In this document: positions 1 through 14,843 of the stretch, piece after piece
Layout of the letters: each line of letters starts with the position of its first letter
Numbering within the stretch: position 1 is the stretch's first letter
Origin: Pseudomonadota bacterium
GTDB taxonomy: Bacteria > Pseudomonadota > Alphaproteobacteria > Sphingomonadales > Sphingomonadaceae
Direction of reading: 5' to 3'
Length of the DNA stretch: 64,000 nucleotides
Assembly (NCBI GenBank): GCA_040387595.1
Contig: JAZKDN010000014.1
Coordinates: 9,082 to 73,081, forward strand
Notes under the pieces: generated by a model
Told to the model about the DNA's origin: nothing
The model's input: only the letters and a program-made list of their open reading frames with translations
The model's database searches: none
Program-made: the position numbers and the translations under genes

Positions 1-1
1 A

Positions 2-310
2 GCCAACTGGGCGTTTCACGACGCGATAAACCAGGCCTGCGGCAATCGTTTCCTCGCCCACGACTGTTCGAAAATGCTGCGCGGCGTGATGCGCTTGTCG
101 CTGCTTGCCTTCCGCCAGAACAACACCCAATTTGCCAGTTACGGCGATGTCGTCGTGCAGCATCGCGAGCTGATCGAGGCGATCCGCGCGGCCGATGCGG
201 AATTGGCCGAACGGCTGGTCTACGCGCATTCGGACGAGTTCCGCGAACGGATGAAGGCCTTCGTCGCCGGCGTCGCGACACATGACTTCTCGCTCGTCGC
301 ACGCGGCTGA
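2..310 (+). CDS. GntR-family transcriptional regulator, C-terminal FCD (FadR-type) domain; 5' end lies outside the window
   Basis: Frame 2 is open from the window edge to the TGA at 308-310. The translation (ANWAFHDAINQACGNRFL...HRELIEAIRAADAELAERLVYAHSDEF) has the helical pattern of FCD ligand-binding domains. Confidence 0.6.
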   Translation, partial: ANWAFHDAINQACGNRFLAHDCSKMLRGVMRLSLLAFRQNNTQFASYGDVVVQHRELIEAIRAADAELAERLVYAHSDEFRERMKAFVAGVATHDFSLVARG

Positions 311-321
311 GCAGCCGCCGC

Positions 322-1602
322 CTACTCTTCCAGGTCGGCAATGATCCGTCGTCCCGAGGCTGCCATCAGCAACGCCGTCGGGAGCAGTAGCGCCATCACT
401 ATCATCAGCGCATAGCGCAGGCCGGTCGGCCCCTCGGTCGCGCTGAAATGGTCGCTGAGCGCCCCCGTCACGACGGGTCCAAGCCCGAAGCCGAGCAGGT
501 TGCCGAAGAACAGGACGATCGCGATCGCGGTCGCGCGCCGGGCATTGCCACACACGGCGTGGATCGCAGTGAAGGCCGCCGGCAGCGCGGCGTATAGCAA
601 TACCCCACCAAAGGTGCTCACCACCAGGAACCAGGTCAGATCGTCGATCATGAACATCGCCACATTGGGGACGATCGCCAGCCCGAAACCCAGGGCCGGG
701 AACCAGCCGATCCAGCGGCGGTCCCGCGCGGTGAGCCAGTCGCACAGCGCGCCGCCCGCGAGGCTGCCGACCAGCACGGCCATCGCCGACGTCAGGCCGA
801 AGATCGGGCCTGACTCCGCGATCGGGCTGCCGATCACCCGCACCAGATAGGAGGGCACGAAGACCAGCGCGCCATAGGCCGCGAAATGGTAGGTGGTGAA
901 CCCGATCAGCAGCAGTACGAAGGACCGCTTTGACGCCAGGGCGCGGATCGATGCGCCGAAAGGCTCGATCACCCGGGCGCGGGCAGCGGCCGGGTCGATC
1001 TGGCGCGGCTCGACCAGCAGCAGCATGACCAGCACGGCGATCAGCAGCCCCGGCAGGCCGAAGGCGACCAGCGTTATCCGCCAGCCATATGCTGCCACGA
1101 GCTGCGATCCGATCGTCAGGCCGATCAGATAGCCCGCCGTTCCCGACGTCGCGAAAATTCCGATCGCCCGGGCACGCTGGGCGGCGGGAAAATAGTCGAC
1201 GATCAGCGACTGGGCCGGCGGCGTCGCCCCCGCCTCGCCCACACCGACGCCGATCCGCGCGAGCAGCAGGTGCCAGAAGCTCCCTGCCGCCGCGCAGAGC
1301 ATCGTCATGCCGCTCCACACCGTGATCGCTCCTGCGATCAGTAGCTTGCGGTTGCCGCGGTCGGCCCAGCGGGCGATCGGCAGGCCGAGCACCGAGTATA
1401 GCAGCGCGAAGGACAGCCCGCTCAGCAGGCCGAGCTGGGTGTCGGAAACGCCGAACTCCTGCTTGATCGGCTCGAGCAGGACCGAGATCACGACCCGATC
1501 GACCGAACTGGACGTGCCGACCAGGAACAGGATGGCGAGAAGCCCCCAGCGCCGCGCCGGCGAGGGAACGAACCGCAGCGGATCGCCCGTCTGGTCAACC
1601 AC
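322..1602 (-). CDS. MFS transporter
   Basis: Multi-TM hydrophobic pattern and MFS loop motif GLPIARWADRGNRK. Start set at GTG 1602 (VVDQTGDPL...), which overlaps the upstream peptidase stop (GTGGTTGA). ATG 1680 is the alternative start. Confidence 0.8.
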   Translation of the reverse strand: MVDQTGDPLRFVPSPARRWGLLAILFLVGTSSSVDRVVISVLLEPIKQEFGVSDTQLGLLSGLSFALLYSVLGLPIARWADRGNRKLLIAGAITVWSGMTMLCAAAGSFWHLLLARIGVGVGEAGATPPAQSLIVDYFPAAQRARAIGIFATSGTAGYLIGLTIGSQLVAAYGWRITLVAFGLPGLLIAVLVMLLLVEPRQIDPAAARARVIEPFGASIRALASKRSFVLLLIGFTTYHFAAYGALVFVPSYLVRVIGSPIAESGPIFGLTSAMAVLVGSLAGGALCDWLTARDRRWIGWFPALGFGLAIVPNVAMFMIDDLTWFLVVSTFGGVLLYAALPAAFTAIHAVCGNARRATAIAIVLFFGNLLGFGLGPVVTGALSDHFSATEGPTGLRYALMIVMALLLPTALLMAASGRRIIADLEE

Positions 1603-3595
1603 GATGCTGGTCTTCGGCCGGCCGATCCCATTGCCCGAACCAGCGCAGAATGCGGATGCCCTGGTCCACCTGCGCCTCATAGCGGAGCGGGGCGTGCCCC
1701 TCCTCCGGATACAGGGCAAGCTCGGTCGGCACCCCGCGCAGCGCCAGCGCCCGATAGAATTGGGTAGCCTGGCTCGACGGCGTCGTGTGGTCGGCTTCGC
1801 CGGCGATCAGCAGAGTCGGGGTGGCGACTTTGTCAGCATGGCGCAACGGGCTGCGCGCGTCGAAGATCCCGCCGATCTCATAGGGCGACCCCTCAGTGTA
1901 AAGCGCCAGGAACTCGGGATGATGCGCGGTGAAATATTGGCTGCGCATGTCGGTGACCGGCGCCATCGCGCAGGCTGCACGGAATCGGTCGGTGCGCGTC
2001 ACCAGCCAGCTGGTCATATAGCCGCCATAGCTGCCGCCGATCACGAACAGACGATCGGGATCGACGCCATGGCTGGCTACAACATGATCGACGCCGGCCA
2101 GCAGGTCGCGATGATCCGCCCCGCCCCAGTCGCCGATCACGCGCGACGCGAAGTCGAGCCCCCGACCCGAGCTGCCGCGCGGATTGGCGGCAAGCACCGC
2201 ATAGCCCGCACTCACGAGCAGCGCCGCGAAGGGATTGTCGAACGTCCAGCTGTCGCGGAACAGGTGTGAGGGGCCGCCATGGACGAACAACACCAGAGGC
2301 GGCCGCTCGACTCCGGCGGGCTTGGCCAGATAGCCCTTGATCGGCAAGCCCTCGGCGCCCTGCCATTCGATCGCCTGGGCGGCGCCCAGCCGCTGCTGCA
2401 ATGCCAGGATCGGTGCGTCGGCCAGATCGAGCGCCGTGCTCGCGATCCCCGCGCCGTCGATCCGCCGAAGTTGCTGATAGGTGCCGAAGCCGTGGGCGGG
2501 CATGATCAGGCCCTGCCGCCCTATCGGCGCCGCGAACGGCACCTTGCGTCCCGCCGTGCCCGGCGTGCGCCATTCGATTTCGACATTCCCGCTGGCGACA
2601 TCGAGCGTCCCCGCCACCGTTTCAGGAGCGTCGAAACCCGCGAAGAACAGGCGGCCCGGGGCCCGCCAGGCCAAGGCGGACAGCTGGATGCCGATATCGG
2701 GCCGCGTCACTTCCCCGCTCATGCCATCGACCAGGACAAGACTGCCGAGTTGCACGGTGCGGTGGAAGCGCCCTTCGATCAGGGCGACCTGCCGGCCATC
2801 GGGTGATCCCTTCACACCCGCCAGCTCGAGATTCGATTCGGCGATGGTGGCGAAGGCGCCTCCGGTCGCCGGTGCCACGCCGACATGGGTCTGATACCAG
2901 CCGCCCTCGCCGGGATTGGCGGACAGGATTGCGACGATCCGGTCGTCGCCGAGCCAGTCGCATTCCCAGACATTCTGTCCGGCGGCGCCTATGTCGACGA
3001 GGCAGCCGGTCGCCACCTCCCAGATGCGGGCGCGGCGCCACTTCTCGGGACTGTCACTGGTCTCGACGGTCGGCATCCAGCTCGGGCGATCGGCTTCGGC
3101 CGCATGGCCGATACGGGCGGTAGCGGCCGATCCCGCCGCATCGGATCCCGCATCGGCGCTTTGCAGTAGGATGCGGGTGCCATCAGGCGACCAGGCGAAG
3201 CTTTCGACCGCCTCACCTGCGAGCACGACCGTGCCGCGCTGCCGTTCGGGTGTCGCCGCATCGGCGATGACGAGCTGGAAATTGCCGCCCCCCTGATCTC
3301 GGTCCGACAGAAAGGCGATGAGGCGTCCGTCGGGCGACCAGCGCGGATCCGACAGACTGGCGGCCGCGGAGCCGATCCACTGTGGCGCCTGCCCCTCGGC
3401 CAGCAGCATCGATCGCGTCGATGGGAAGCCGCCACCGGCATCATAGACAGGCCCCGAAAGGGCGATACGTCCATCGGTCGGATGCGGTGAAACATGGACG
3501 ATTGCATGGAGCCGGTCGGCGCCGGGCCGATAGATGGTCTCGAAATAATCCGCGACATGCCGCTCGATAGCGCCGAGCGCTTGCTGGTCGATCAT
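1595..3595 (-). CDS. S9-family serine peptidase (prolyl oligopeptidase / acylaminoacyl-peptidase type), no obvious signal peptide
   Basis: Nucleophile elbow VIGGSYGGYMTSW, then GEADHTTP and EEGHAP (Asp and His). N-terminal beta-propeller-like WSPDG repeats. ATG 3595 is preceded by AAGGTGGGA. The 175 upstream residues of the track ORF are R/S/A-rich and overlap the receptor gene. Confidence 0.85.
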   Translation of the reverse strand: MIDQQALGAIERHVADYFETIYRPGADRLHAIVHVSPHPTDGRIALSGPVYDAGGGFPSTRSMLLAEGQAPQWIGSAAASLSDPRWSPDGRLIAFLSDRDQGGGNFQLVIADAATPERQRGTVVLAGEAVESFAWSPDGTRILLQSADAGSDAAGSAATARIGHAAEADRPSWMPTVETSDSPEKWRRARIWEVATGCLVDIGAAGQNVWECDWLGDDRIVAILSANPGEGGWYQTHVGVAPATGGAFATIAESNLELAGVKGSPDGRQVALIEGRFHRTVQLGSLVLVDGMSGEVTRPDIGIQLSALAWRAPGRLFFAGFDAPETVAGTLDVASGNVEIEWRTPGTAGRKVPFAAPIGRQGLIMPAHGFGTYQQLRRIDGAGIASTALDLADAPILALQQRLGAAQAIEWQGAEGLPIKGYLAKPAGVERPPLVLFVHGGPSHLFRDSWTFDNPFAALLVSAGYAVLAANPRGSSGRGLDFASRVIGDWGGADHRDLLAGVDHVVASHGVDPDRLFVIGGSYGGYMTSWLVTRTDRFRAACAMAPVTDMRSQYFTAHHPEFLALYTEGSPYEIGGIFDARSPLRHADKVATPTLLIAGEADHTTPSSQATQFYRALALRGVPTELALYPEEGHAPLRYEAQVDQGIRILRWFGQWDRPAEDQHRG

Positions 3596-3671
3596 CGTCC
3601 CACCTTCATGCCTTTGCCACGTCGTCGCCGCGGACCGCCCGTCGGGGCGATCCGCGGCATCGCTGGTCGGC

Positions 3672-5792
3672 TTAGAGGCCGAACTCCAATTGCAGGCCGA
3701 ACGTCCGGGGACGCAACCGATATTGGAGGGCGCCGAGCTCGACCGCCGGCTGGAGGACGCCTTGCCAATTGTTGGCATTGTCCATGAACAGCGTCGCGGT
3801 CCACTGACTGTCCGCCGCCTTGAGCGCGAAACTGGCCCGGGTCGTAAGCGGATCGCCGCTGACGAAGCGGCGGACAACGCCCGCGCTGAGGATCTGCGCC
3901 GGGATCTTCGAGCGGTAGTTGATCGATCCGGACAGCTTGCCCTCCATCGACCCGACCGGGAAGCTGATGTCGACGAAGCCGCTCGCGGTATATTCGGGCG
4001 AGAAGGCGAGGCGATCGCCGCGGTTGTAGACCGTGATCGGCCCGCCTGCGGTCTGGGTGACGACCGGATCGTCGAGATCCAGACCGTTCCAGCTGAAAGT
4101 TCCGCCGATGTCGAGCCCACGCACCGGCCGCGCCGTCATGGTCAGATCGACGCCGAAACCGCTCGCACCCGACCCGTTGACCGTTGCCGCATAGATGACG
4201 TTGTTCAGATTGACGTTCAGATTCTGCTGAATGTCCTTCCACTTGATATAGTAGAGCGCGGCATCGAAAGTCAGCGCGCCGTCGAGGGTGATGCCCTTGG
4301 CGCCGACCTCGAAATTGTGGAGCCTGTCAGCCTTCACCGGCGGAATGCCGGGCGCCGAACGAATGATCGTCGGGCTCTGGTTGAAACCGCTGCGGAAGCC
4401 CTGCGAGTAGGACGCATAGGCGGTGAAGCTGCGGCTGGGCAGATAGGTGATCACCGCGCGGGGGGTGATGGCGTCGAAGGTTTCGGTACGGCTGGCGAGG
4501 ACCTGCGCCGGATTGCCCGTCACCGGGGTGACCTCGACCTGCGAGACACGGTCGTTGAAGTAGCGCAGGCCGCCGGTGAGCTCGAGCTTGCCGTCGAACA
4601 GGGCCTTGGTCAGCTGGCCGAACACCGCATAGGAGCGCGACTTGTCGCGGAAGTTGATCGGGGCCGGCAGCAGGAACAGCGTCTGGTTGAGATCGTCCTG
4701 CGCGTCGCGATAGAAGGCGCCTGCGGACCAGCGCCAGCTGCCCTCACTGGTCGAGTTGAGCAACAGCTCCTCGGTAAAGATCTTCGAGCGCAGGTCGGTG
4801 TGCAGCGTCTGCAACGCGCCGAGGCTGGTATAATCGCGCTCGCCGACATTGGTGAATTTCAGATAGCTGGTCGCGCTGGTCGCCGTGAAGCCGTCGAAGT
4901 CGTAGCCGATGCGGCCGCTATAGGAGTCATAATCGAGCCGCTGCGGCAGTTTCACAGTCGTCGTCTGGACGCCGCTCGCATTCACGTAATTGGGCGAACC
5001 CTGGTCGATGCGCGAGATCGACACGCCGAGGCCGATGTTGAGGCGCTCGGTCGGCTGGGCGTTGAGCTTGACGCGGACATTGCGGCTCTTGGTGTCATTG
5101 GCATCCTTGACGCCGCGATTGGGCTGGTCGATCCAGCCGCCGGCGTTCTCGAAGCCAGCGACGACGCGGACTGCAAGCTTGTCCTCGACGATCGGCACGT
5201 TGATGGCGGCGTCGCCGCGGTAGCTGGCCTCGCCGCCCTTGGTGGTGGATACCCCGGCGCGGCCCTTCACTTCGAAGCGGTCGAGCCGTGCTTCGTTGGT
5301 CAGCAGCCGGACCACGCCGTTGAGTGCGTTCGCGCCGTACAGCGTGCCCTGCGGGCCGCGGAGCACCTCGATCCGCTCCATATCATAGGCATTGGTGTCG
5401 GGGAGGATCGCCGACTTCACCAGGCCGAAAGGCACCGAGTCGATATAGAAGGCCGAGGTGCTCGACCCGGCAAGCGTGGCGCCATTGGCGGCGACGCCGC
5501 GGATAGCGATCTGGCTGCCGCCGCCTTGCGCGGTGGTGGTCAGGGAGAGGCCCGCGACGTTACGCAGCGCTTCGGTGACACCGCCATTGGATTGCGCGTC
5601 GAGCCGGGCGCCGCCGAGCACGGCAACCGAGATGGGAACATCCTGCAGTCGCTCCTGGCGCTTCTGCGCCGTGACCACGATGTCGCCATCCGCCGCGGCG
5701 TCTGAATCAACCGCGTTCTGAGCATATGCCGCGCCGGCGAGCAGCCAAGCGATGGCCAGCGTCGCCACACCGAATCGCACGCTGCGCTTCAT
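3672..5792 (-). CDS. TonB-dependent outer-membrane receptor
   Basis: Signal peptide MKRSVRFGVATLAIAWLLAGAAYAQ, plug region (DIVVTAQKRQERLQDVPISV, IEVLRGPQGTLYGANA) and a long beta-barrel body. Start at ATG 5792, residue 34 of the track ORF. Confidence 0.85.
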   Translation of the reverse strand: MKRSVRFGVATLAIAWLLAGAAYAQNAVDSDAAADGDIVVTAQKRQERLQDVPISVAVLGGARLDAQSNGGVTEALRNVAGLSLTTTAQGGGSQIAIRGVAANGATLAGSSTSAFYIDSVPFGLVKSAILPDTNAYDMERIEVLRGPQGTLYGANALNGVVRLLTNEARLDRFEVKGRAGVSTTKGGEASYRGDAAINVPIVEDKLAVRVVAGFENAGGWIDQPNRGVKDANDTKSRNVRVKLNAQPTERLNIGLGVSISRIDQGSPNYVNASGVQTTTVKLPQRLDYDSYSGRIGYDFDGFTATSATSYLKFTNVGERDYTSLGALQTLHTDLRSKIFTEELLLNSTSEGSWRWSAGAFYRDAQDDLNQTLFLLPAPINFRDKSRSYAVFGQLTKALFDGKLELTGGLRYFNDRVSQVEVTPVTGNPAQVLASRTETFDAITPRAVITYLPSRSFTAYASYSQGFRSGFNQSPTIIRSAPGIPPVKADRLHNFEVGAKGITLDGALTFDAALYYIKWKDIQQNLNVNLNNVIYAATVNGSGASGFGVDLTMTARPVRGLDIGGTFSWNGLDLDDPVVTQTAGGPITVYNRGDRLAFSPEYTASGFVDISFPVGSMEGKLSGSINYRSKIPAQILSAGVVRRFVSGDPLTTRASFALKAADSQWTATLFMDNANNWQGVLQPAVELGALQYRLRPRTFGLQLEFGL

Positions 5793-5859
5793 AGGATCAC
5801 CCACGTTTTTCCCCTTTTCAAACCTTCGCTTGCTGCGACGGACCTTGCTTGAACACACT

Positions 5860-5880
5860 TTGTATAATCTGTGTAGACAA
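5860..5880. promoter_or_regulatory. Operator copy 1: TTGTATAATCTGTGTAGACAA (dyad TTGTnTA-N7-TAnACAA)
   Basis: Exact 21-bp repeat of 5979-5999. Seven of ten arm positions are self-complementary. It lies 68 nt upstream of the receptor start. Confidence 0.6.
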
Positions 5881-5978
5881 GTCAAGAGCACAGCAAAGCG
5901 CCCCGTTCTTCAGCCCTAAATCTTCCTATCGATGCCGAGAATGCGCGCAGCCAGCGCGACTGGAACGCGCAACGCATA

Positions 5979-5999
5979 TTGTATAATCTGTGTAGACAA
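5979..5999. promoter_or_regulatory. Operator copy 2: TTGTATAATCTGTGTAGACAA, containing a perfect TATAAT hexamer
   Basis: Identical to 5860-5880 and 119 bp from it. It ends 22 nt before the thioesterase ATG (6022). TATAAT at 5982-5987 is a plausible -10 element for the + strand operon. Confidence 0.6.
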
Positions 6000-6021
6000 T
6001 ACGATTTCAGACGATTAGGCC

Positions 6022-6507
6022 ATGATCTCCGAGGCAGAGTGGGAGCGTCCGGTGAATCAGGTGGATCTGAGCGAAAAGGGCGTCGAAACTTTCCGAGGGG
6101 TCGTGCATCCCTGGCTGTGCGACGCGATGGGCCATATGTCCGTCCAGCATCAAATGCCCCTGCTCGACAACGCCGTCTATCATCTGCTCGGCGAGTTCGG
6201 ACCGGTCACCGAGACGATCGATGGCCGCCGCTTTGGCTGGGCCGATGTCCGCCACGAGATTCAGTATGCCGATGAACTGGTGTGCGGCGACCTGCTCATG
6301 CTGCATTCGGGCCTGCTCTCGGTGGGCCGCTCTTCGATCCGCCACCGCACCATCCTGTCACGACGATCCGACGGCCGCGCATGCACGATCATGGAAGGTG
6401 TGACGGTGCGCTTCGATCTCGACGCGCGCGCCTCCGTCCCGCTGACCGATGCCCAGCGCGCCTGTGCGGAGGCGCTGATGCTGCCTTCCCTTCCCAACCC
6501 CCTGTGA
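6022..6507 (+). CDS. Hotdog-fold acyl-CoA thioesterase (4HBT/YbgC-like)
   Basis: 161 aa. The pattern FRGVVHPWLCDAMGHMSVQHQMPLLDNAVYHLL is typical of 4HBT-type thioesterases. Confidence 0.7.
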   Translation: MISEAEWERPVNQVDLSEKGVETFRGVVHPWLCDAMGHMSVQHQMPLLDNAVYHLLGEFGPVTETIDGRRFGWADVRHEIQYADELVCGDLLMLHSGLLSVGRSSIRHRTILSRRSDGRACTIMEGVTVRFDLDARASVPLTDAQRACAEALMLPSLPNPL

Positions 6508-6525
6508 TGTGAGGTTCTGCCAACG

Positions 6526-7284
6526 ATGGAACGGGTACTCGTAACCGGAGCCGGCGACAGCGTCGGCCGCGCCATTGCCGAGCGCTTTCTGGGCCGCGGC
6601 GACAAGGTCCATATCTGCGACGTCCGCGCCGATGCGGTGGCGGCGACCCTGGCGGCCAATCCGGGCCTGACCGGCAGCGTGACCGACGTCGGCGTTCGCA
6701 CCGATGTCGAAAGGCTGTTCGACGACGCGCGCGCCGCGCTCGGCGGGCTGTCCATCCTCGTCAATGTCGTCGGCATGGCCGGTCCGCGCGGTCCGATCGA
6801 AGATCTGGACGAAGACGAATGGGACAAGACCATCGCCGTCAATCTGAGCGGCATGTTCTATTGCATGAAGCGCGCCGTGCCGCTGCTGAAGGCCAATGGC
6901 GGCGGCTCGATCGTCAATTTCTCGACCTGCTCCACCCGCACCGGCATCCCGTTCCGCGCGCCCTATATCGCGTCGAAGGCGGGGGTCGAGGGGCTCACCA
7001 AGAATAGCGCGCGCGAACTGGGACCGTCCGGCATCCGCTGCAACGCGATCCTGCCGGGCATCATCGATAACGATCGGTTCCGCTTCGTCGTGAACCGCAA
7101 CGTCGAAGCGACGGGGCGGAGCTTCGAAGACATCGAGGCGGACTACCTTCGCTACGTGTCGCTGCGCTGCAAGGTCCAGGTCCCGGAATTTGCCGACATG
7201 GTCGAGTTCCTCACTTCGCCCGCCGGCGCGAAGATAACCGGCGAAACGATCGCCCTGAGCGGCAACATGGAATGGGAAGAATAA
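6526..7284 (+). CDS. SDR-family oxidoreductase
   Basis: Rossmann motif VLVTGAGDSVGRAI, an NVVG segment, catalytic YIASKAG (YxxxK). 252 aa. Confidence 0.9.
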   Translation: MERVLVTGAGDSVGRAIAERFLGRGDKVHICDVRADAVAATLAANPGLTGSVTDVGVRTDVERLFDDARAALGGLSILVNVVGMAGPRGPIEDLDEDEWDKTIAVNLSGMFYCMKRAVPLLKANGGGSIVNFSTCSTRTGIPFRAPYIASKAGVEGLTKNSARELGPSGIRCNAILPGIIDNDRFRFVVNRNVEATGRSFEDIEADYLRYVSLRCKVQVPEFADMVEFLTSPAGAKITGETIALSGNMEWEE

Positions 7285-7285
7285 G

Positions 7286-8188
7286 ATGAGCGGGCAGAAG
7301 ACAATCCTGACCTGCGCCGTGACCGGCGGAGCGCCCTATAACCGCAAGCATCCGAGCATGCCGATCACGCCGAAGCAGATCGCCGACGCGTGCATCGAAG
7401 CCGCCTCTGCCGGCGCCAGCATCGTGCACGTCCACGTTCGCGATCCGCAAACCGGCGAGGGCAATCGCGACCGCGCCCATTTCCGCGAGGTGGTCGACCG
7501 CGTCCGCCAGACCGGCACCGACATCGTTCTCAACCTGACCTGCGGCATGGGAGCCTATTTCCTGCCTGACCCTAAGCGCGAGGGGCATATGCTGCCCGGC
7601 AGCGACGTCGTCGGCGTCGACGAGCGCGTCGCGCATGTCGAGGAACTGCTCCCCGAGATCGCGACGCTCGACATCGTCACCAACAACCAGGTCGAGGGGC
7701 CGACCGAATATATCTATTTCAGCCCGACCCATACGCTGCGTGCGATGGCGAAGCGCTTCCAGGCGGCGGGGGTGAAACCCGAGCTGGAGGTGTTCGGCGC
7801 AGGCGACATCCTGTTCGGCAACAAGCTGGTCGAGGAAGGGCTGATCGACGGCCCTGCGATGATGCAGATGGTGCTGGGCGTGCAATGGGCCGCCCCGCAC
7901 GGCGTCGATACCATCCTTTACCAGCGCGGATTGATGGCGCCCGGCACGATCTGGGGCGCCTTTGGCATCGGCCGCGAGCAGATGCCGATGCTGGCCCAGA
8001 CCCTTCTGCTAGGCGGAAATATCCGCGTCGGGCTGGAGGATAATCTCTACATGTCGCGCGGCGTGTGGGCGACCAACGGACAGCTCGTCGAGCGCGCCTA
8101 CTCGGTCGTGGAGGCGATCGGCGGTTACAGCGTTGCCACCCCGGCGGAAACGCGCGAGCTATTGAAGTTGCGTACCCCTGGCAGTTGA
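7286..8188 (+). CDS. BKACE-family (DUF849) beta-keto acid cleavage enzyme
   Basis: N-terminus ILTCAVTGGAPYNRKHPSMPITPKQIADACIEAASAGASIVHVHVRD matches the BKACE TIM-barrel signature, including the HxH zinc ligands. Confidence 0.85.
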   Translation: MSGQKTILTCAVTGGAPYNRKHPSMPITPKQIADACIEAASAGASIVHVHVRDPQTGEGNRDRAHFREVVDRVRQTGTDIVLNLTCGMGAYFLPDPKREGHMLPGSDVVGVDERVAHVEELLPEIATLDIVTNNQVEGPTEYIYFSPTHTLRAMAKRFQAAGVKPELEVFGAGDILFGNKLVEEGLIDGPAMMQMVLGVQWAAPHGVDTILYQRGLMAPGTIWGAFGIGREQMPMLAQTLLLGGNIRVGLEDNLYMSRGVWATNGQLVERAYSVVEAIGGYSVATPAETRELLKLRTPGS

Positions 8189-8194
8189 GGCCCG

Positions 8195-9124
8195 ATGACG
8201 ACCGGTTCGATCCCCTATCTCGATGGCGCGGCGGTTGCCGAGGCAACACCCTTTCCGGCGCTGATCGCAGCGCTGCGCTCGGCCTTTGCCGCGCGCAGCA
8301 CTCACGCGCCTGAACGGCTCAATACCGACATGGACGGCGCGACGCTGCTGCTGATGCCGGCCTGGCGCGACGATCGGGCCGGCGGGGTCAAGATCGTCTC
8401 CGTCGATCCGCGCGAGCGCCCATCGATCCGATCGACCTATATCTTGTCCGATCATCTGGGCGGACCGCCGCGCGCGATCCTCGATGGGACGATGCTTACC
8501 CGCCGTCGCACCGCCGCCGCCTCGGCACTCGCCGCTTCCTATCTCGCCCGGCCGGATTCGCGGACGCTGCTGCTGATCGGCACAGGCGCGCTGATCGCGC
8601 CGCTGGTCGAGGCCTATGGTTGCAGCTTCGCGCTCGACCGCATCCTGATCTGGGGCCGCGATCCCGAGAAGACGGCCGCCGCCGTCGAGGCCAACCGTCC
8701 TTCGGGCTATCCGGTCGAAGCCTGCAGCGATCTCGATGCGGCCATCGCCACGGCCGATATCGTCAGCACCGCGACCTTGGCAACGAAACCGCTGATCCTG
8801 GGCGCGGCGTTACGGCCAGGCATGCATGTCGATCTTATCGGCGCCTTCCGCCCCGATATGTGCGAGGCGGACGGCGCCTGTTTCGCCCGCGCGCGGACCT
8901 TCGTCGACACGCGGCACGGTGCGCTTGCCGAAGCGGGCGACCTGATCCAGGCGATCGCCGCCGGCCATCTCTCCGCCGCTGCGATCGAAGCCGATCTGGC
9001 GGCGCTATGCGACGGATCGCATCGCGGCCGCGACGGCGATGGAAACGCGATCACCCTGTTCAAGTCTGTCGGAACCGGGCTTGAAGACCTTGCCGCCGCG
9101 CGCCTGGCGTTGGGGCTATCATGA
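8195..9124 (+). CDS. Ornithine cyclodeaminase / mu-crystallin family protein (candidate cyclic imine reductase)
   Basis: 309 aa. Family-typical TMLTRRRTAAASALAASYLAR and a GTGALI Rossmann segment. The stop overlaps the next start. Confidence 0.85.
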   Translation: MTTGSIPYLDGAAVAEATPFPALIAALRSAFAARSTHAPERLNTDMDGATLLLMPAWRDDRAGGVKIVSVDPRERPSIRSTYILSDHLGGPPRAILDGTMLTRRRTAAASALAASYLARPDSRTLLLIGTGALIAPLVEAYGCSFALDRILIWGRDPEKTAAAVEANRPSGYPVEACSDLDAAIATADIVSTATLATKPLILGAALRPGMHVDLIGAFRPDMCEADGACFARARTFVDTRHGALAEAGDLIQAIAAGHLSAAAIEADLAALCDGSHRGRDGDGNAITLFKSVGTGLEDLAAARLALGLS

Positions 9125-10347
9125 TCCTTGCCCCCATCGACCAGGCACTGCTCGACGGCGAGCACGGCCCCGCCGCGCGTCGGGCCATGGAGATATTGCT
9201 GCGCTATGGCGAGGTCAGCGAGGCCGAGCGTTTCATCCCGATCGGCTCGGCCCATATCGACGGCTGCCTTTATCACGGCCCGTCGAGCATCGATTTCGTC
9301 AAGCGTTTCGTCGATTTGGGCGGCAGGGTGCGGGTGCCGACCACGCTCAACGTTGCCGCGGTCGATACCGTCCATCCGGGCTGGCATTGCGGGCCGCCCG
9401 AGATTCTCGACGCGCAGCGAGAGCTAACCGAATTGCACGAGCGGCTCGGCTGCCTGGCAACCCTGACGTGCGCGCCTTATCAGCGGATCGCCCGCCCCCT
9501 GCCCGGCGAGGATGTCGCCTGGGCAGAATCCAACGCCATCGTCTTCGTCAACAGCGTGCTCGGCGCGCGCACCGACCGCTATGGCGACTTCGCCGACCTG
9601 TGCGCCGCCCTCACCGGTCGCGTTCCGCTCGCCGGTTTGCATATCCAGGCCAACCGGCGGCCCCGCGCCATAGTCGAACTTCCCGCTGCGATCGACATGC
9701 CGCGCGACCTCCTGTTCGGTGCCATCGGCTATGTCGTCGGCGAGCGACTGCGTGGCGAAGTCACCTTCATCCGCGGCCTTCCCGCTGACGCCCATGAAGA
9801 TGAACTGAAGGCGCTCGGCGCGTCCGGGGCATCGGGCGGGGCGATGGCGCTGTTCCACGCCGACGGTATCACGCCCGAAGCGGACTGGGCCGCGGCTCTT
9901 ACAGATGACCTGCCGATCCTGCGGATCGATACCGCCGCGCTCCACGCCGCCGTCGAAACGCTGTGCCCGGTCGCCCCTGGCGAGGCGGTCGCTGCGGTCT
10001 GCCTGGGCACACCGCATTTCTCGATCGACGAATTCCGCGGGCTCAACGCCGCCATCGCCGGCCGCGCCCGCGCTCCCGCGACCGAGGTCTATGTGTCGAC
10101 GTCGCGCGCGATCGCGGCGATGGTCGATAGCGATCCCGCTTTCGCTCCACTGCGCGCTTATGGCGCAAAGATCGTGGTCGACACCTGCACCTATCTGGCG
10201 CCCGTCGTACGCGAGCGCGATGGCGCGATCCTCACCAACTCGGTGAAATACGCGCATTACGGGCCCGGCAATCTTGGCCGCCGGATCGGGCTGATGACGC
10301 TCGAACGCTGCCTGCGCTCGGCCGAAACCGGGCGGGTGACGGCATGA
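9121..10347 (+). CDS. Aconitase X catalytic (large) subunit, DUF521
   Basis: The N-terminus LLDGEHGPAARRAMEILLRYGEVSEAERFIPIGSAHIDGC is characteristic of AcnX. 4-nt overlaps with both neighbours. Confidence 0.85.
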   Translation: MILAPIDQALLDGEHGPAARRAMEILLRYGEVSEAERFIPIGSAHIDGCLYHGPSSIDFVKRFVDLGGRVRVPTTLNVAAVDTVHPGWHCGPPEILDAQRELTELHERLGCLATLTCAPYQRIARPLPGEDVAWAESNAIVFVNSVLGARTDRYGDFADLCAALTGRVPLAGLHIQANRRPRAIVELPAAIDMPRDLLFGAIGYVVGERLRGEVTFIRGLPADAHEDELKALGASGASGGAMALFHADGITPEADWAAALTDDLPILRIDTAALHAAVETLCPVAPGEAVAAVCLGTPHFSIDEFRGLNAAIAGRARAPATEVYVSTSRAIAAMVDSDPAFAPLRAYGAKIVVDTCTYLAPVVRERDGAILTNSVKYAHYGPGNLGRRIGLMTLERCLRSAETGRVTA

Positions 10348-10763
10348 CCATCGCCGCGAAATCGCTCGTCCCTGGTCGGGCATCGGGTCCGCTGCTGGTG
10401 CTCGACGTCCCGCTCAGCCTGTGGGGCGGCGTCGATCTCGCCGACGGCCGGATCGTCGACCGCACCCATCCGCAGGCGGGCGCCTGCATCGCCGGCCATG
10501 TCCTCGCCATGCCTGCCGCGCGGGGCTCCTCTTCCTCGTCGAGCGCGCTGGTCGAACTGGCTCGCGCCGGTCGCGCGCCGGCCGCCATCATCCTGACGCA
10601 ACGCGACCCCATTCTGGTCGTCGGTGCCATCGTCGCCGATGATCTCTATGGCATCGCAATCCCCATCGTGACGATCGCCATGGCGGACTGGCCAGACCTT
10701 CGCCCTGGCACGCAGCTGACGGTCGATGCGGCGTCAGCCAGTGCCTGCTGTCGGGTCGGATAG
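10344..10763 (+). CDS. Aconitase X swivel (small) subunit, DUF126
   Basis: GRASGPLLVLDVPLSLWGGVD...MPAARGSSSSSSALVELARAGRAPAAIIL matches the DUF126 swivel-domain pattern. Confidence 0.85.
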   Translation: MTIAAKSLVPGRASGPLLVLDVPLSLWGGVDLADGRIVDRTHPQAGACIAGHVLAMPAARGSSSSSSALVELARAGRAPAAIILTQRDPILVVGAIVADDLYGIAIPIVTIAMADWPDLRPGTQLTVDAASASACCRVG

Positions 10764-10994
10764 TCGGACTGGTTGCTTAGAGAGCGGGGGGCGTCGTCAT
10801 GGGCTGGTGACGGCGGCCGCCAGACGGCTTGAACGGCCGGCCTCTCGCGAACCGTTGCCGTTCGCCAATTGTTCGTGACGATGCTCGAATATGTCAGATT
10901 TTCGAGGACAGACCACGGCCCGCAAGACTATATCCAGTACCACGATGTCCCTGGCTGCACGATACGTCAGGCGCGCAACGGGGATGCCGCGCGG

Positions 10995-12374
10995 TCAACA
11001 TTCGACGACGTTGACGGCCAGCCCTCCTTCCGAGGTCTCCTTGTATCTGCGGTGCATGTCGCGGCCGGTTTCGCGCATCGTAGCGATGACTTTGTCGAGG
11101 CTGACGAAATGGGTGCCGTCCCCGAGCAACGCCAGGCGCGACGCGTCGAGCGCCTTGATCGCGCCCATCGCGTTACGCTCGATGCAGGGGATCTGGACCA
11201 GCCCGCCGATCGGATCGCAGGTCAGGCCGAGATTATGCTCCATTCCGATTTCCGCGGCGTTTTCAATCTGGGCGTTGGTGCCGCCGAGCGCAGCCGTCAT
11301 GCCCGCCGCCGCCATCGAACAGGCGACACCCACTTCGCCCTGGCAGCCGACCTCGGCGCCGGATAGCGAGGCGTTGCGCTTGTACAATGCGCCGATGGCC
11401 CCGGCCGTCAGCAGGAAAGTCCGCACGCCCGCATCGGTGCCACCGCGGAAGCGCCGGAAATACATCAATACGGCCGGGATAATGCCCGCGGCGCCATTGG
11501 TGGGTGCGGTGACGACCGCGCCGCCGGCCGCATTCTCCTCGTTCACCGCCAGCGCCCAGACATTGACGAAGTCCATTGCAGCCAGCGGATCGGCAATCAG
11601 CGTTTCGGGCTTGGCCGTCAGCATCTCGTGCACGCGCTTCGCGCGCCGCGGGACCCGCAGCCCGCCGGGCAGTTCGCCGTCCCGCTGCAGTCCGCGGCCG
11701 ATACAGGCCTCCATCCGCGCCCAGATTGCGTCGAGCCGCTGGTCGATCTGCCCATCGGTCATGCCTTGCGCCCGTTCATTGGCGCGCATCAGATCGGCAA
11801 TCGTAAGATCCGCCTTTTCAGCCAAGGTCAGCAATTCAGCGGCCGAGGTGAAAGCATGAGGAACGGTCGTCGCTGAGGCGTCGCTCGCCGTCGGAGCCTT
11901 GAGATCGGCCTCATCGGCAATGAAACCGCCACCCGTGGAGAAGTACAGCCGCTGCTCCAGCACCGATTGCGGACCGGTGAGAGCGGTGAAGCGCAGGGCG
12001 TTGGGATGGCCGGGATGGGGTGTCTTCGACCAGAGGATATCGACGACTGGGTCGAAGTCGACCGCATGGCGACCACCCAGCAGGATGCGCCGATCGATCG
12101 CGATCGTCGCCAGGGCGCTCGCCATGTCGTCGGGCTGAACGGTCGCGGGATCGAAACCGGCAAGGCCCATCTGAACCGCCGTGTCGGTGGCATGTCCCCG
12201 ACCGGTCGCCGCCAGTGAACCAAGCAGTTCGACTTCGACGCGCATCACTGACCCCAGCGTCCCCGCTTGCTCCAGCAATCGCACGAAGCGCAAGCCGGCG
12301 AGCATGGGCCCCATCGTATGCGAGGACGAAGGGCCTACGCCGGGCTTGAAGATGTCGAAGGTACTGACAACCAT
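10995..12374 (-). CDS. sdaA: L-serine ammonia-lyase (iron-sulfur, single-chain)
   Basis: N-terminus [21 protein letters not shown]. 459 aa with a fused alpha/beta arrangement. Confidence 0.95.
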
Positions 12375-12516
12375 GTGGACTGATCTGCTTCATTCGGTGG
12401 GGCCGGCGGCAACCGGACGCGGGATAGACATCCCGTGTTAGCCAAGCGAAAGGCGCGGCACCAGCGAGCTGCGAAGATTGCCAAGATGAAGGATGTGCCA
12501 CCGTGCAAGACCGCAC

Positions 12517-13242
12517 TCAGCGCATCGCGACGCTGTCCAGGCTTTCGATGAGATGCTGGTAAAGGCCATCGGCGTCGCGGCGAAGCGGATGTCCGCCCGG
12601 CATGACGATCACCCTCACATTCGGTTGATGAAGCAGGGGACAGAGACTGTTCTCTTCTTCCCGTCCGTGGACACAGAGCAGCGGAACCCAGTCGAGCCGC
12701 CGCCCGGTATCGACGGCGGCGGCATCGGCCGGAACCAGATCGAGCATCTCGGCGGGAGACGCCTGGTACATCACCGTATCGGTCGGAACGACCAGCGCGA
12801 CCATCGCCAGCTTCGCGCGCAGCGGGGGCGGTAGCCCGACCAGCCCGACATGCACCATGTCCGCACCATAGGATTGTCCGATCAGCAGCAGGCGGTCGGC
12901 ATGGCCGAAGGCGAGGCCGCGTCGCACGGCGTCGGTCAGCAGAAATCGCACCTCCGCGGGTGAGCGCCGCGTGCGGAAATAGACCAGCGAGTTGACGCCC
13001 AGAACGGGGATGCCGTCGGCGGCCAGCCGATCGGCGATCCGCCGCCCCATCCCGACCTTGAAGCCCATGTCGCCGGATATGATGACGGCCGCGAGCCCCC
13101 GATGCGCGGGCGCTGGTGTCCCCTGCGCCTTGACCGGCACGTAGAGATCGCCACCGAAATAGCCGAGCCTGCCCCAATAGACCGTCAGCCCCGCGCCGAT
13201 TAGCATGATCGCCAACACCGCACTTGTCAGGAAGCGCTTCAC
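12517..13242 (-). CDS. Single-domain VirJ/AcvB-family alpha/beta hydrolase, membrane-anchored or secreted
   Basis: The GTG at 13242 overlaps the upstream stop (GTGA). N-terminal hydrophobic segment KRFLTSAVLAIMLIGAGL. VirJ pattern IISGDMGF...GIPVLGVNSLVYF...IGQSYGAD...CVHGREEENSLCP...PGGH. Confidence 0.75.
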   Translation of the reverse strand: MKRFLTSAVLAIMLIGAGLTVYWGRLGYFGGDLYVPVKAQGTPAPAHRGLAAVIISGDMGFKVGMGRRIADRLAADGIPVLGVNSLVYFRTRRSPAEVRFLLTDAVRRGLAFGHADRLLLIGQSYGADMVHVGLVGLPPPLRAKLAMVALVVPTDTVMYQASPAEMLDLVPADAAAVDTGRRLDWVPLLCVHGREEENSLCPLLHQPNVRVIVMPGGHPLRRDADGLYQHLIESLDSVAMR

Positions 13243-14723: not shown

Positions 14724-14843
14724 ATACACCCCAAGCAAGGGACATCCTGCGCACGCGTTACTCCCCCACGCCAGACATCGGCGTGAGGGCGAAGTTAAAC
14801 ATCGGTAATGTCGGGCCGTGCGGTATCGCCAGCCGCGGCGGAC

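Follow-up and report, generated by a model that had tools for sequence, protein, structure and literature searches.

A six-gene run in a 64,000-nt stretch of a Sphingomonadaceae contig (the window) joins a beta-keto acid cleavage (BKACE, DUF849) module to a two-subunit aconitase X (AcnX) module, which raises the question of what single pathway would use both. A sequence-only reading of this DNA had known of no described pathway that needs the two modules together, and our search likewise found no paper linking the BKACE and AcnX families among the papers searched. The six genes lie on the forward strand and encode a hotdog-fold (4HBT_2) acyl-CoA thioesterase (6022..6507, 161 aa; Pfam 4HBT_2, 3.6e-10), a classical short-chain dehydrogenase/reductase (SDR) (6526..7284, 252 aa; adh_short_C2, 3.5e-49), a BKACE enzyme of the 3C6C/BsfD-like clade (7286..8188, 300 aa; BKACE, 1.8e-84), an OCD/mu-crystallin-family Pyr2C/Pip2C reductase (8195..9124, 309 aa; OCD_Mu_crystall, 7.1e-49), the AcnX large subunit (9121..10347, 408 aa; AcnX, 3.1e-118) and the AcnX small (swivel) subunit (10344..10763, 139 aa; AcnX_swivel_put, 2e-26). 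Pfam, together with NCBIfam for the OCD protein, confirmed all six family calls of that reading, and the list of open reading frames gave exactly its gaps of 18, 1 and 6 nt and its two 4-nt overlaps. No forward-strand terminator-like sites scoring above chance were found inside 6022-10763, and the six genes can be taken as the single operon that had been claimed.

The full unit is larger than these six genes. A second operon (322-5792, reverse strand) diverges from the first and encodes a TonB-dependent outer-membrane receptor (TBDR) with a signal peptide (3672..5792; Pfam Plug and TonB_dep_Rec_b-barrel; N-terminus MKRSVRFGVATLAIAWLLAGAAYA, from the ATG at 5792), an S9-family serine hydrolase of the acyl-peptide-hydrolase/Dpp5-like type with a PD40 propeller (1595..3595; Peptidase_S9, 2.3e-47, and PD40) and an MFS transporter of the anion:cation-symporter/OATP-like type (322..1680; MFS_1, 5e-47, and OATP, 4e-13). 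The S9 hydrolase (N-terminus MIDQQALGAIERH..., ATG at 3595) is probably cytoplasmic because it has no signal peptide, and its closest solved structures were 8WT1 (an S9 peptidase) and 5YZM (an acyl-peptide hydrolase). The MFS protein, whose start is ambiguous (ATG 1680 or GTG 1602) and whose best NCBIfam match, the D-galactonate transporter subfamily, fell below the cut-off, is a probable inner-membrane importer. The window edge cuts a GntR/FCD-family regulator gene, of which only the 3' end (~99 codons) is left (1..301, forward strand; tblastn); the GntR/FCD protein of locus L001 (Pfam GntR and FCD) matched window positions 2-298 at 92% identity by tblastn. L001 and L002 each have a GntR/FCD gene beside that for the MFS transporter, and GntR-family genes also lie within the cluster in L051 and L053. 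On the forward strand of the window, a 21-bp motif, TTGTATAATCTGTGTAGACAA, occurs twice without mismatch, where shuffles predict no copies, once on the TBDR side (5860..5880) and once (5979..5999) 22 nt before the start codon of the thioesterase gene; both copies are candidate operator or promoter elements. Of 16 other loci, 14 have the motif between the corresponding genes, either exact or with one or two base changes, and the two copies flanking both divergent promoters are consistent with one regulon. The sequence-only reading had passed over the divergent operon, the regulator fragment and the duplicated motif. With these parts included, the best explanation is a catabolic locus of ~10 genes under GntR control, of which the six genes form one half.

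Close BKACE orthologues marked 16 full-length loci in a one-genome-per-species collection, and 18 full-length loci were examined overall; a nineteenth, L004, is a 1.9-kb fragment showing SDR, BKACE and OCD only. The MFS, S9, TBDR, thioesterase, SDR, BKACE and both AcnX genes occurred together in all 18 full-length loci, which span Sphingomonas, Sphingopyxis, Hyphococcus, Steroidobacter and a gamma MAG, with BKACE 86-96% identical there and across all 19 loci. Conservation of the six-gene order, a check that the sequence-only reading had proposed, held in 14 of the 16 loci of the one-genome-per-species collection, and the gene set stayed united in loci of scrambled order (L016 and L053); for both reasons, chance falls far short of explaining the arrangement. 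The OCD gene was absent from two of the 18 loci (L016 and L017), and in both of these the BKACE gene directly abuts that for the AcnX large subunit. Next-tier BKACEs (66-70% identity) and those below had other partners, and no AcnX was found beside them. Four orders or classes thus share the BKACE-AcnX linkage, a trait specific to this group of BKACE orthologues, in keeping with the earlier claim that the two modules serve one pathway. The SDR was 79-95% identical across loci, S9 and MFS orthologues (the latter at 60-84% identity) were found in every locus long enough to show the gene, and tblastn recovered the TBDR from 17 of 18 loci (45-83% identity), the adjacent TBDR of L051 being known from Pfam annotation only. 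Most relatives also carry an ArgE-like M20 deacylase gene, and single genomes carry a PF00756 esterase (L001) or a penicillin amidase (L015).

The AcnX large subunit matched the cis-3-hydroxy-L-proline (C3LHyp) dehydratase 7CNP at 1e-79, and the small subunit matched residues 23-131 of the same structure at 9.7e-24. In AtAcnX numbering, the large subunit retains D203, N233, C273, E292-S293-N294, K530 and Y534, with Leu at I206 and the C-x-C pair reduced to a single Cys, and the small subunit retains W35 and the catalytic S70, with Ser at both C71 and T72; nearly all C3LHyp contacts are retained. The single remaining Cys matches the two-cysteine pattern of Type-IIa AcnX, whose binding residues are described as 'completely conserved' (PMC8184944), whereas C71S, T72S and I206L set this AcnX apart from the Type-I enzyme, so its subclass placement is not proven. 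The archaeal mevalonate-5-phosphate AcnX was ruled out by the presence of D203 and W35 and by the lack of a Cys at the S449 equivalent. The signature was identical in the 20 sequences compared, except for Met in place of Leu at 206 in L053. Clusters with AcnX and OCD genes and no BKACE gene share the large-subunit signature, except for Met at 206 in L055, and contain DPP-IV, M24 prolidase-like, M2 and S10 peptidases; their AcnX branches among the BKACE-linked sequences, and AcnX is predicted to be a generic C3LHyp-type enzyme. The OCD protein passed the curated cut-off of the bifunctional Pyr2C/Pip2C reductase model NF004793 (329.8 bits; cut-off 322), scored only 102 against ornithine cyclodeaminase NF005762 (cut-off 350) and matched the Pyr2C reductase 6T3E at 1.4e-36. 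The proline or hydroxyproline chemistry suggested by the sequence-only reading was borne out.

The best PDB match of the BKACE was 3C6C (446 bits), and its His-x-His, E-x-E and GLED motifs are retained. The thioesterase belongs to a family of 112 members among 5.8 billion proteins, and the three distant relatives examined (40-46% identity) all lie in other BKACE clusters, which speaks for release of an acyl-CoA by the BKACE and its hydrolysis to the free acid; we propose the hotdog thioesterase as the enzyme that would hydrolyse this product. The SDR reached no NCBIfam equivalog at its cut-off, and its proposed role is that of a dehydrogenase converting a beta-hydroxy acid to a beta-keto acid.

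Taking gene content, families, active-site residues, co-occurrence and the shared motif as observed, we infer a substrate and an order of reactions in which the two modules would act in series, converting a proline-derived gamma-amino-beta-hydroxy acid of the detoxinine type, with an imported detoxin/rimosamide-like (DRL) depsipeptide as its source, through 3-hydroxyproline to L-proline, a reading to which we give a little under an even chance. The TBDR and the MFS permease would import a peptide-like compound, from which the cytoplasmic S9 acyl-peptide hydrolase, aided by the ArgE-like M20 deacylase in most relatives and by an esterase or penicillin-amidase-type acylase in single genomes, would free the hydroxy acid, 3-hydroxy-3-(3-hydroxypyrrolidin-2-yl)propanoate (detoxinine). 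The SDR would oxidise the side-chain beta-hydroxyl to give a beta-keto acid, the BKACE would transfer the C1-C2 unit to acetyl-CoA with acetoacetate and 3-hydroxyprolyl-CoA as products, and the thioesterase would free cis-3-hydroxy-L-proline, which the two-subunit AcnX would dehydrate to delta1-pyrroline-2-carboxylate and the OCD-family enzyme would reduce to L-proline. If AcnX uses C3LHyp and is fed by the BKACE module, oxidised detoxinine would be the only beta-keto acid that gives 3-hydroxyprolyl-CoA. With a ring of (2S,3R) configuration, detoxinine would give the cis-3-hydroxy-L isomer required by AcnX. In the Det residue, a proline bears a beta-hydroxyl on its ring and is extended by malonate, the extension being reduced to an alcohol; its nitrogen is acylated by Ile or Val, and the residue is also O-acetylated and joined through an ester bond to N-acyl-Phe (PMC9503745). 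Every DRL gene cluster has the ring dioxygenase, and Streptomyces, Pseudomonas, Chitinimonas and Pseudovibrio have been named as genera in which the DRL family is widespread (PMC12828459; bioRxiv 10.1101/445270). Since the proposed route is the exact reversal of the biosynthesis of the DRL hallmark residue, DRL compounds or their fragments would be the most likely natural substrates. The serial order accounts for all six genes by known chemistry, and the peptidase, deacylase and transport genes fit it too; that the S9C-like acyl-peptide hydrolases, ArgE-type deacylase, esterase and amidase suit an N-acylated, O-acylated depsipeptide is only plausible. These hydrolases are generic in type, which counts against the DRL assignment. 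Nor are DRL compounds known to occur in amounts that would select for so widespread a catabolic locus, which also counts against it. If true, this pathway, which is undescribed, may degrade detoxin- or rimosamide-like natural products.

The loss of the OCD gene from two of the 18 loci while the remaining genes stay counts against the serial pathway and favours parallel modules, an alternative that we consider unlikely but deserving of real weight, in which one imported compound yields two products under common regulation and transport with separate intermediates. AcnX and OCD would act on free 3-hydroxyproline, and SDR, BKACE and thioesterase would shorten another beta-hydroxy acid of the same compound, either a gamma-amino-beta-hydroxy acid (resembling statine, GABOB or carnitine, for example) or a 3-hydroxyacyl group, the latter being found also on known DRL-type compounds (PMC9503745). 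Each module does occur without the other, AcnX with OCD beside proline peptidases and the thioesterase-BKACE pair in other clusters. However, none of the 18 full-length loci has this BKACE orthologue without AcnX, and the two genes abut where OCD is missing; moreover, this alternative needs a compound class that combines cis-3-hydroxyproline with a second, unbranched beta-hydroxy acid, of which we know no common example, and a thioesterase acting on a fatty acyl-CoA product would waste energy.

Rather improbable, in our estimate, is a serial pathway on a different 2-amino-3-hydroxy acid (cis-3-hydroxypipecolate, or acyclic 3-hydroxyornithine or 3-hydroxylysine), which AcnX would convert to a cyclic imine and the reductase to pipecolate or proline. 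The model matched by the OCD protein is named for Pyr2C and Pip2C reduction alike, three substrate contacts differ from the crystallised AcnX (C71S, T72S and I206L, with Met in two loci), and the S9 and ArgE-like deacylases fail to discriminate among candidate substrates. Yet W35 and D203, which contact the ring and ring nitrogen, are invariant, the identical AcnX signature occurs in clusters rich in proline-specific peptidases (DPP-IV, M24), and, to our knowledge, no gamma-amino-beta-hydroxy acid with a 3-hydroxypipecolate or 3-hydroxyornithine core has been described from nature.

The BKACE carries Phe at the position of the canonical Tyr (CcaKce Y145, PdKce Y173), and its PELEVF resembles the PELELF of BsfD, unlike the PEVEVY and FEFECY of characterised cleavage enzymes. 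A BKACE acetylates R-CO-CH2-COO- at C2, after which R-CO-SCoA is released, whereas BsfD transfers the acetyl group and decarboxylates with no thiolytic cleavage, a divergence that its authors tie to the Phe (PMC12871164). This replacement counts against chain shortening, and on BsfD-like chemistry the enzyme would C-acetylate and decarboxylate a beta-keto acid to a 1,3-diketone with no acyl-CoA formed. We regard such chemistry as very improbable: Phe is not diagnostic because every sampled relative with an intact alignment there has it (35 to 96% identity), the dedicated acyl-CoA thioesterase family accompanies this and other BKACEs, and a diketone hydrolase gene is absent from the locus.

Least credible of all are the two alternative branches that the sequence-only reading had drawn from one 3-hydroxy imino acid, dehydration with reduction or oxidation to 3-oxoproline with BKACE cleavage, which suit gene content alone (3-hydroxyproline being formally a beta-hydroxy acid) but conflict with the R-CO-CH2-COO- substrate and R-CO-SCoA product of BKACE (PMC12871164): C2 of 3-oxoproline bears the ring nitrogen, ring opening would yield an N-substituted 2-aminoacetoacetate thioester that has no precedent known to us and for which no processing enzyme appears to be encoded, alpha-amino-beta-keto acids decarboxylate readily, and competing routes in one operon leave unexplained why both are so strictly conserved and why import and hydrolase genes accompany them. 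Apart from this mechanism, its families, operon, single pathway and proline chemistry stood.

The sequence-only reading had described a single operon of six genes, and an ORF listing recovered all six on the plus strand at the positions it had given and with the same spacing (gaps of 18, 1 and 6 nt followed by two 4-nt overlaps). All six of its family calls were likewise borne out by the profile check that it had proposed, a Pfam search that identified a thioesterase (TE, 6022-6507; 4HBT_2), a classical SDR (6526-7284), a BKACE (DUF849) protein (7286-8188; 1.8e-84 over the full profile), an OCD/mu-crystallin-family reductase (8195-9124; also assigned by NCBIfam NF004793), and the catalytic (9121-10347; 3.1e-118) and swivel (10344-10763) subunits of aconitase X (AcnX). 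A consensus scan of window 1-12500 found no internal plus-strand terminator above chance; with terminator and promoter counts at chance level, the scan is informative only as showing no evidence for a split of the operon. The unit extends beyond these six genes, with a divergent operon and a regulator upstream. The minus strand carries genes for a TonB-dependent receptor with a signal peptide (TBDR, 3672-5792), a PD40-propeller serine hydrolase of family S9 (1595-3595) and an anion:cation-symporter/OATP-like MFS permease (322 to about 1680). The closest relatives of the S9 hydrolase (8WT1, 5YZM and a Dpp5 model) are of the acyl-peptide-hydrolase type, and the protein has no signal peptide and is therefore probably cytoplasmic. 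A GntR/FCD regulator is represented by its C-terminal 99 residues (window 2-298), which match the complete gene of the closest genome, Sphingomonas sp. Root720, at 92% identity. At the 3' border of the six-gene operon is a convergent L-serine ammonia-lyase gene, which the comparison of loci showed not to travel with the cluster. Among the ten largest ORFs at 16-64 kb, none was an acetoacetate or proline catabolic gene. Two features unrelated to the locus were noted in the window, namely ORFs with VirJ/AcvB domains (12517-14738, minus strand) and an MprF-like protein with a phosphatidylglycerol lysyltransferase C-terminal domain (18718-21396, plus strand); we take this pair to be reminiscent of the alphaproteobacterial lpiA/acvB-type membrane-lipid modification genes.

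The intergenic region between the divergent operons is 229 nt long and contains the 21-bp sequence TTGTATAATCTGTGTAGACAA twice, exactly and in the same orientation (5860-5880 and 5979-5999), where no copy is expected by chance. Each copy has an internal TATAAT and ends of the form TTGT...ACAA, and the motif is conserved across genera: of 16 other loci, 14 have it, exactly or with one or two bases changed, in the corresponding intergenic region, that of Hyphococcus included. We read the motif as a candidate operator joining both operons in one regulon; it would overlap both promoters and is probably the operator of the adjacent GntR/FCD regulator.

In order to examine the conservation of the locus, the BKACE protein was searched against one genome per species, and the gene content of the loci was determined by tblastn with all window proteins. 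Seventeen loci carried a BKACE 88-96% identical to that of the window, and all remaining matches of the scan were at or below 52%; the hosts were Sphingomonas, Sphingopyxis, an erythrobacteraceal MAG, Hyphococcus and a gammaproteobacterial MAG. Conservation of the gene order, a further check suggested by the earlier reading, held for the divergent operon as well: the arrangement MFS-S9-TBDR (minus) / TE-SDR-BKACE-OCD-AcnXL-AcnXS (plus; AcnXL and AcnXS being the large and small AcnX subunits) is retained in 14 of the 16 full-length loci, and two truncated loci (L010 and L011) have the same order over the part present. Sphingomonas colocasiae (L017) is without the OCD gene, with nothing else missing; the gammaproteobacterial MAG (L016) also has no OCD gene, and its other eight genes are reshuffled yet clustered. 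Loss of this gene in two genomes is tolerable because delta1-pyrroline-2-carboxylate (Pyr2C) reductases of other families exist. Two additional loci, found through AcnX homologues in Steroidobacter cummioxidans (L051) and on a JGI metagenome contig (L053), carry all nine genes plus a GntR gene, the latter in a different arrangement and with an adjoining ArgE-like M20 deacylase. L001 and L002 likewise have M20 and GntR genes beside the cluster, L001 with a PF00756 esterase in addition, and in Hyphococcus (L015) a gene for a penicillin-amidase (Ntn-hydrolase) acylase (4100-6472, minus strand of that locus) lies between the S9 and TBDR genes of an otherwise syntenic cluster, which may reflect a different N-acyl decoration on the substrate. 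Amino-acid identity across loci was 86-96% for the BKACE (across Alpha- and Gammaproteobacteria), 79-95% for the SDR and 45-88% for the remaining genes, and this unevenness points to strong constraint on the BKACE and not to recent wholesale transfer. Overall, the locus is an uncharacterised catabolic regulon that comprises about 10 genes and shows strong conservation.

The AcnX sequence was aligned to the crystallised Agrobacterium enzyme (AtAcnX, 7CNP), whose chain numbering equals the paper numbering plus 10 (checked at W35 and S70-C71-T72). The residues of AtAcnX that bind cis-3-hydroxy-L-proline (C3LHyp) or act in catalysis are W35, S70, C71, T72, D203, I206, N233, E292, S293, N294, K530 and Y534 (PMC8184944). 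Nine of these 12 are identical in the window protein, which keeps the catalytic Ser70, W35, D203, N233, E292-S293-N294, K530 and Y534, and the other three are conservative changes (C71S, T72S and I206L); the signature is constant in all 20 sequences compared, except for Met in place of Leu at 206 in L053. Of the three cluster-binding cysteines of Type-I, two remain, namely C273 and the single Cys of the C508-W-C510 stretch, in which two residues are deleted; the third Cys of the archaeal enzyme, at the S449 position, is replaced by Thr. The large- and small-subunit genes are separate, adjacent and overlap by 4 nt. As described, Type-IIa is the two-subunit bacterial C3LHyp dehydratase, with two cluster cysteines and the substrate contacts retained (PMC8184944, section 14), its C3LHyp-binding sites being "completely conserved"; subclasses IIc-IIf miss the landmark residues (PMC8184944), and in archaeal Type-IIb, D203, W35, T72 and I206 are all exchanged for non-polar residues and the S449 equivalent is a third Cys (PMC8184944, sections 11-12). 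On residue signatures, the pattern of the window protein suggests a possible Type-IIa enzyme. The Type-IIb mevalonate-5-phosphate dehydratase was rejected on the retention of D203 and W35, the Thr at 449 and the weaker match to the archaeal TkAcnX (7CNR; 208.8 bits, against 271.7 bits for AtAcnX). The C3LHyp dehydratase model NF051439 gave 360.6 bits for the large and 129.5 bits for the small subunit; its cut-off of 700 comes from a model built on the fused Type-I enzyme and is unreachable for a split one. Since the contacts to the ring nitrogen (D203) and to C4-C5 (W35 and position 206) are preserved, the AcnX substrate is taken, from these residues, to be C3LHyp or a very close analogue. The neighbouring OCD protein scored 329.8 bits against NF004793 (cut-off 322), an equivalog model for the bifunctional reductase of Pyr2C and delta1-piperideine-2-carboxylate (Pip2C), and 102.3 bits against the ornithine cyclodeaminase model NF005762 (cut-off 350); on these scores, an ornithine cyclodeaminase partnering an ArgE-like deacylase in a route from N-acetylornithine through ornithine to proline was rejected.

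AcnXL/AcnXS pairs 62-67% identical to those of the window were also found without any BKACE. In Rhizorhabdus histidinilytica (L052) such a pair is accompanied by OCD, two TonB receptors, and M2 and M24 (prolidase-like) peptidases; of two metagenome contigs (L055 and L056), one has the order S9-OCD-AcnX and the other carries OCD, DPP-IV, two M24 peptidases and an S10 peptidase. All three have the same large-subunit signature save for Met at 206 in L055, and in a crude neighbour-joining tree they interleave with the BKACE-linked sequences. These modules, set among proline-specific peptidases, are candidate loci for the use of 3-hydroxyproline-containing peptides. The next tier of BKACEs (66-70% identity) has other neighbours, with no AcnX in any context examined: hydantoinase A/B, a gamma-carbonic anhydrase and two SDRs in Pseudomonas and in Cupriavidus, the organism of structure 3C6C; an ABC transporter, M20 and a 3-hydroxyacyl-CoA-dehydrogenase (3HCDH)-type dehydrogenase in Nitratireductor; and a tautomerase on one contig. 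The link between BKACE and AcnX is therefore specific from the BKACE side and generic from the AcnX side.

The TE, SDR and BKACE genes follow one another on the same strand. The thioesterase belongs to a hotdog family of only 112 members in a database of 5.8 billion proteins. About 80 of these (at least 58% identity) are apparently orthologues from this cluster type, and all three of the distant members looked up (40-46% identity) sit in other BKACE clusters, next to hydantoinase A/B, aminotransferase III, MaoC and acyl-CoA dehydrogenase in Leucobacter, to hydantoinase A/B, two SDRs and MFS in a proteobacterial MAG, and to aminotransferase III, an acetyltransferase and a deacetylase on a metagenome contig. 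That the family travels with BKACEs argues that the BKACEs with this thioesterase would release an acyl-CoA that is then hydrolysed to the free acid, and the neighbours point to nitrogen-containing substrates.

Proline is no beta-hydroxy acid, and therefore the BKACE module cannot follow AcnX and the OCD reductase; it would act either before them or alongside them. In the former case, the canonical BKACE reaction, R-CO-CH2-COO- + acetyl-CoA -> R-CO-SCoA + acetoacetate (PMC12871164), would make the acyl-CoA 3-hydroxyprolyl-CoA, so that the beta-keto acid would be 3-oxo-3-(3-hydroxypyrrolidin-2-yl)propanoate and the SDR substrate its 3-hydroxy form, i.e. detoxinine. Such a serial pathway, in which the BKACE module feeds AcnX and OCD, is the reading we favor, at somewhat short of an even chance. 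Each module exists independently in other clusters, a circumstance that speaks for the two running side by side, and we regard that arrangement as rather unlikely. The three AcnX substitutions leave room for an analogue and the reductase is annotated as bifunctional for Pyr2C and Pip2C, so a serial pathway could also act on another amino acid, six-membered or open-chain, which we consider improbable.

The serial pathway through detoxinine would point to the detoxin/rimosamide-like (DRL) depsipeptides. In miramides, rimosamides and detoxins, Det is a proline residue with a hydroxyl at the beta position (PMC9503745, section 13), the carboxyl of which is extended with malonate, the keto group being reduced to an alcohol and the terminal carboxylate left free; Ile or Val acylates the ring nitrogen, and of the two hydroxyls that of the ring carries an acetyl group and that of the side chain an ester bond to N-acyl-Phe (PMC9503745). 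A ring dioxygenase occurs in all DRL gene clusters, and the family is widespread in Streptomyces, Pseudomonas, Chitinimonas and Pseudovibrio (PMC12828459), with 152 related clusters in an actinomycete set (BiG-SCAPE preprint, 10.1101/445270); C3LHyp itself is reported only from telomycin, though its dehydratases are common (PMC8184944). In the proposed route, DRL compounds would be imported by the TonB receptor and the organic-anion MFS permease, and their acyl, ester and peptide decorations would be stripped after uptake: the S9 hydrolase could cut N-acyl-aminoacyl ester or amide bonds, an ArgE-type deacylase could take off N-acyl or aminoacyl groups, and the esterase or acylase of individual genomes would fit such decorations too. 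The polyketide extension of detoxinine would next be removed by the SDR, a BKACE of new specificity and the thioesterase, leaving C3LHyp, which AcnX and the Pyr2C reductase would convert to proline. We take the detoxinine ring to be (2S,3R), and the 3-hydroxyproline derived from it would for this reason have the cis configuration. The operon could thus be seen as a stepwise reversal of DRL biosynthesis, with the ketoreductase step reversed by the SDR, the ketosynthase step by the BKACE and loading by the thioesterase, and with the ring hydroxyl removed last by AcnX and OCD. It is a tentative proposal, and one that we hold to be doubtful, that sphingomonads and a few other Proteobacteria have in this locus the first pathway dedicated to the catabolism of these "anti-antibiotic" depsipeptides via detoxinine.

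The BKACE matched PF05853 with 283.8 bits (cut-off 24.8) over profile positions 1-274 of 274, and the closest solved structures were 3C6C (446 bits) and BsfD of flavophos biosynthesis (9ZSC, 247 bits), with both of which it shares some 20 inserted residues following strand 3. Its VHVHVR, PELEVF and RVGLED align with the motifs of 3C6C, BsfD, PdKce (8RIO), 3LOT and CcaKce. The His-x-His after strand 1 and the Glu of G-L-E-D are presumably the Zn2+ ligands. The Glu of the E-x-E motif is catalytic (PMC11961710), and an active-site Tyr (CcaKce Y145, PdKce Y173) is said to be universal in cleavage-type BKACEs (PMC12871164). The window protein has Phe in place of that Tyr (PELEVF, residues 165-170, window 7778-7795, versus PEVEVY in CcaKce and FEFECY in PdKce); Tyr occupies the position in CcaKce, PdKce, 3LOT and 3E49, and Phe in 3C6C, BsfD and all sampled relatives intactly aligned there (35-96% identity; L018-L049). 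Judged from these alignments, the published generalisation fails for a large part of the family. The flavophos authors suggested that the Phe contributes to the divergent acetyl-transfer and decarboxylation chemistry of BsfD (PMC12871164), and the same chemistry could on this account be ascribed to the window enzyme; however, because the Phe recurs in all sampled relatives that align intactly there, it is not diagnostic and is counted as a caveat only, and we think BsfD-like chemistry very improbable. The branching model of the sequence-only reading, in which one 3-hydroxy imino acid is either dehydrated and reduced or oxidised and cleaved, retains only a slight probability.

Bacterial L-carnitine catabolism via dehydrocarnitine, whose BKACE is placed in group G5 in the scheme of Bastard et al. 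2014 (as summarised in bioRxiv 10.1101/2023.02.15.528638), resembles the favored serial pathway in that a gamma-amino-beta-hydroxy acid is oxidised, a C2 exchange with acetyl-CoA gives acetoacetate and an alpha-aminoacyl-CoA, and the thioester is hydrolysed to the alpha-amino acid by a hotdog-fold thioesterase, which in the carnitine route acts on betainyl-CoA. Carnitine itself was rejected as the substrate: the dehydrogenase is an SDR and not of the 3HCDH type, the locus has a TonB receptor, peptidases and AcnX and no betaine/carnitine transporter, and the 66-70% BKACE relatives sit in varied non-carnitine contexts. The BKACE further differs from that of the carnitine route in its 3C6C-like clade, with the insertion and the Phe, and AcnX and OCD would process the product further. 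The C3LHyp pathway of Watanabe (PMC5144071, PMC8184944) likewise has a two-subunit AcnX beside an OCD-family Pyr2C reductase with L-proline as the predicted product, and nearly all C3LHyp contacts and the Type-IIa two-Cys pattern recur in the window; in contrast, the locus lies outside the classical Lhp cluster with its Hyp epimerase and dehydrogenase, its operon includes the BKACE module, and its AcnX bears the three substitutions. Oxidative 2-deoxy-D-ribonate catabolism (bioRxiv 10.1101/205583) also pairs an SDR with a BKACE, the former converting a 3-hydroxy acid to the 3-keto acid, which the latter splits to give an acyl-CoA with further hydroxyls (glyceryl-CoA), but that substrate is a nitrogen-free sugar acid, AcnX, OCD and peptidase are missing, and the BKACE is of another group. 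Both 3C6C and BsfD have the E-L-E-V/L-F motif of the locus BKACE; the former is a structural-genomics entry from Cupriavidus, where the C. pinatubonensis homologue lies with hydantoinase A/B, two SDRs and gamma-carbonic anhydrase and no AcnX, and the latter is biosynthetic, acts on a phosphonate and releases no acyl-CoA (PMC12871164). The earlier reading knew of no described pathway that needs both modules, and our literature search agreed, finding among the papers searched none that joins aconitase X/DUF521 with BKACE/DUF849 and none that pairs 3-keto-5-aminohexanoate with hydroxyproline or ornithine cyclodeaminase; the BKACE-AcnX context is also absent from those listed by the NetSyn re-analysis of BKACE. 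By analogy, the locus would work like a carnitine route feeding the Watanabe route, with all enzyme families known; we regard the pathway architecture, but not the type of system, as new, and the BKACE specificity as probably new.

If the serial pathway is correct, pyrrolidinyl beta-keto acids would be a new class of BKACE substrates in the 3C6C-like clade, which has a crystal structure and no assigned function, and the wide spread of C3LHyp dehydratases would gain a metabolic reason; under the DRL reading, a widespread natural source of C3LHyp would be identified. It would also be the first bacterial degradation route for the widespread detoxin/rimosamide family, and since these compounds modulate antibiotic action, the route would matter ecologically for the interplay of antibiotics in soils and waters. 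Should the detoxinine assignment prove mistaken, this regulon of about 10 genes, strictly conserved and with clear limits, would still offer an experimentally tractable target, and cultured strains carry it. The serial pathway would further make the hotdog thioesterase family a marker of acyl-CoA-releasing BKACEs, of help in annotating other DUF849 clusters. As a separate observation, the BKACE clusters of Leucobacter allii (L057) and of four other loci (L058, L059, L046 and L054) contain ATP-dependent hydantoinase/oxoprolinase A/B, class-III aminotransferases, SDRs and, in the case of L057-L059, a member of the small thioesterase family described above, which suggests undescribed lactam or amino-acid catabolic routes ending in BKACE cleavage.
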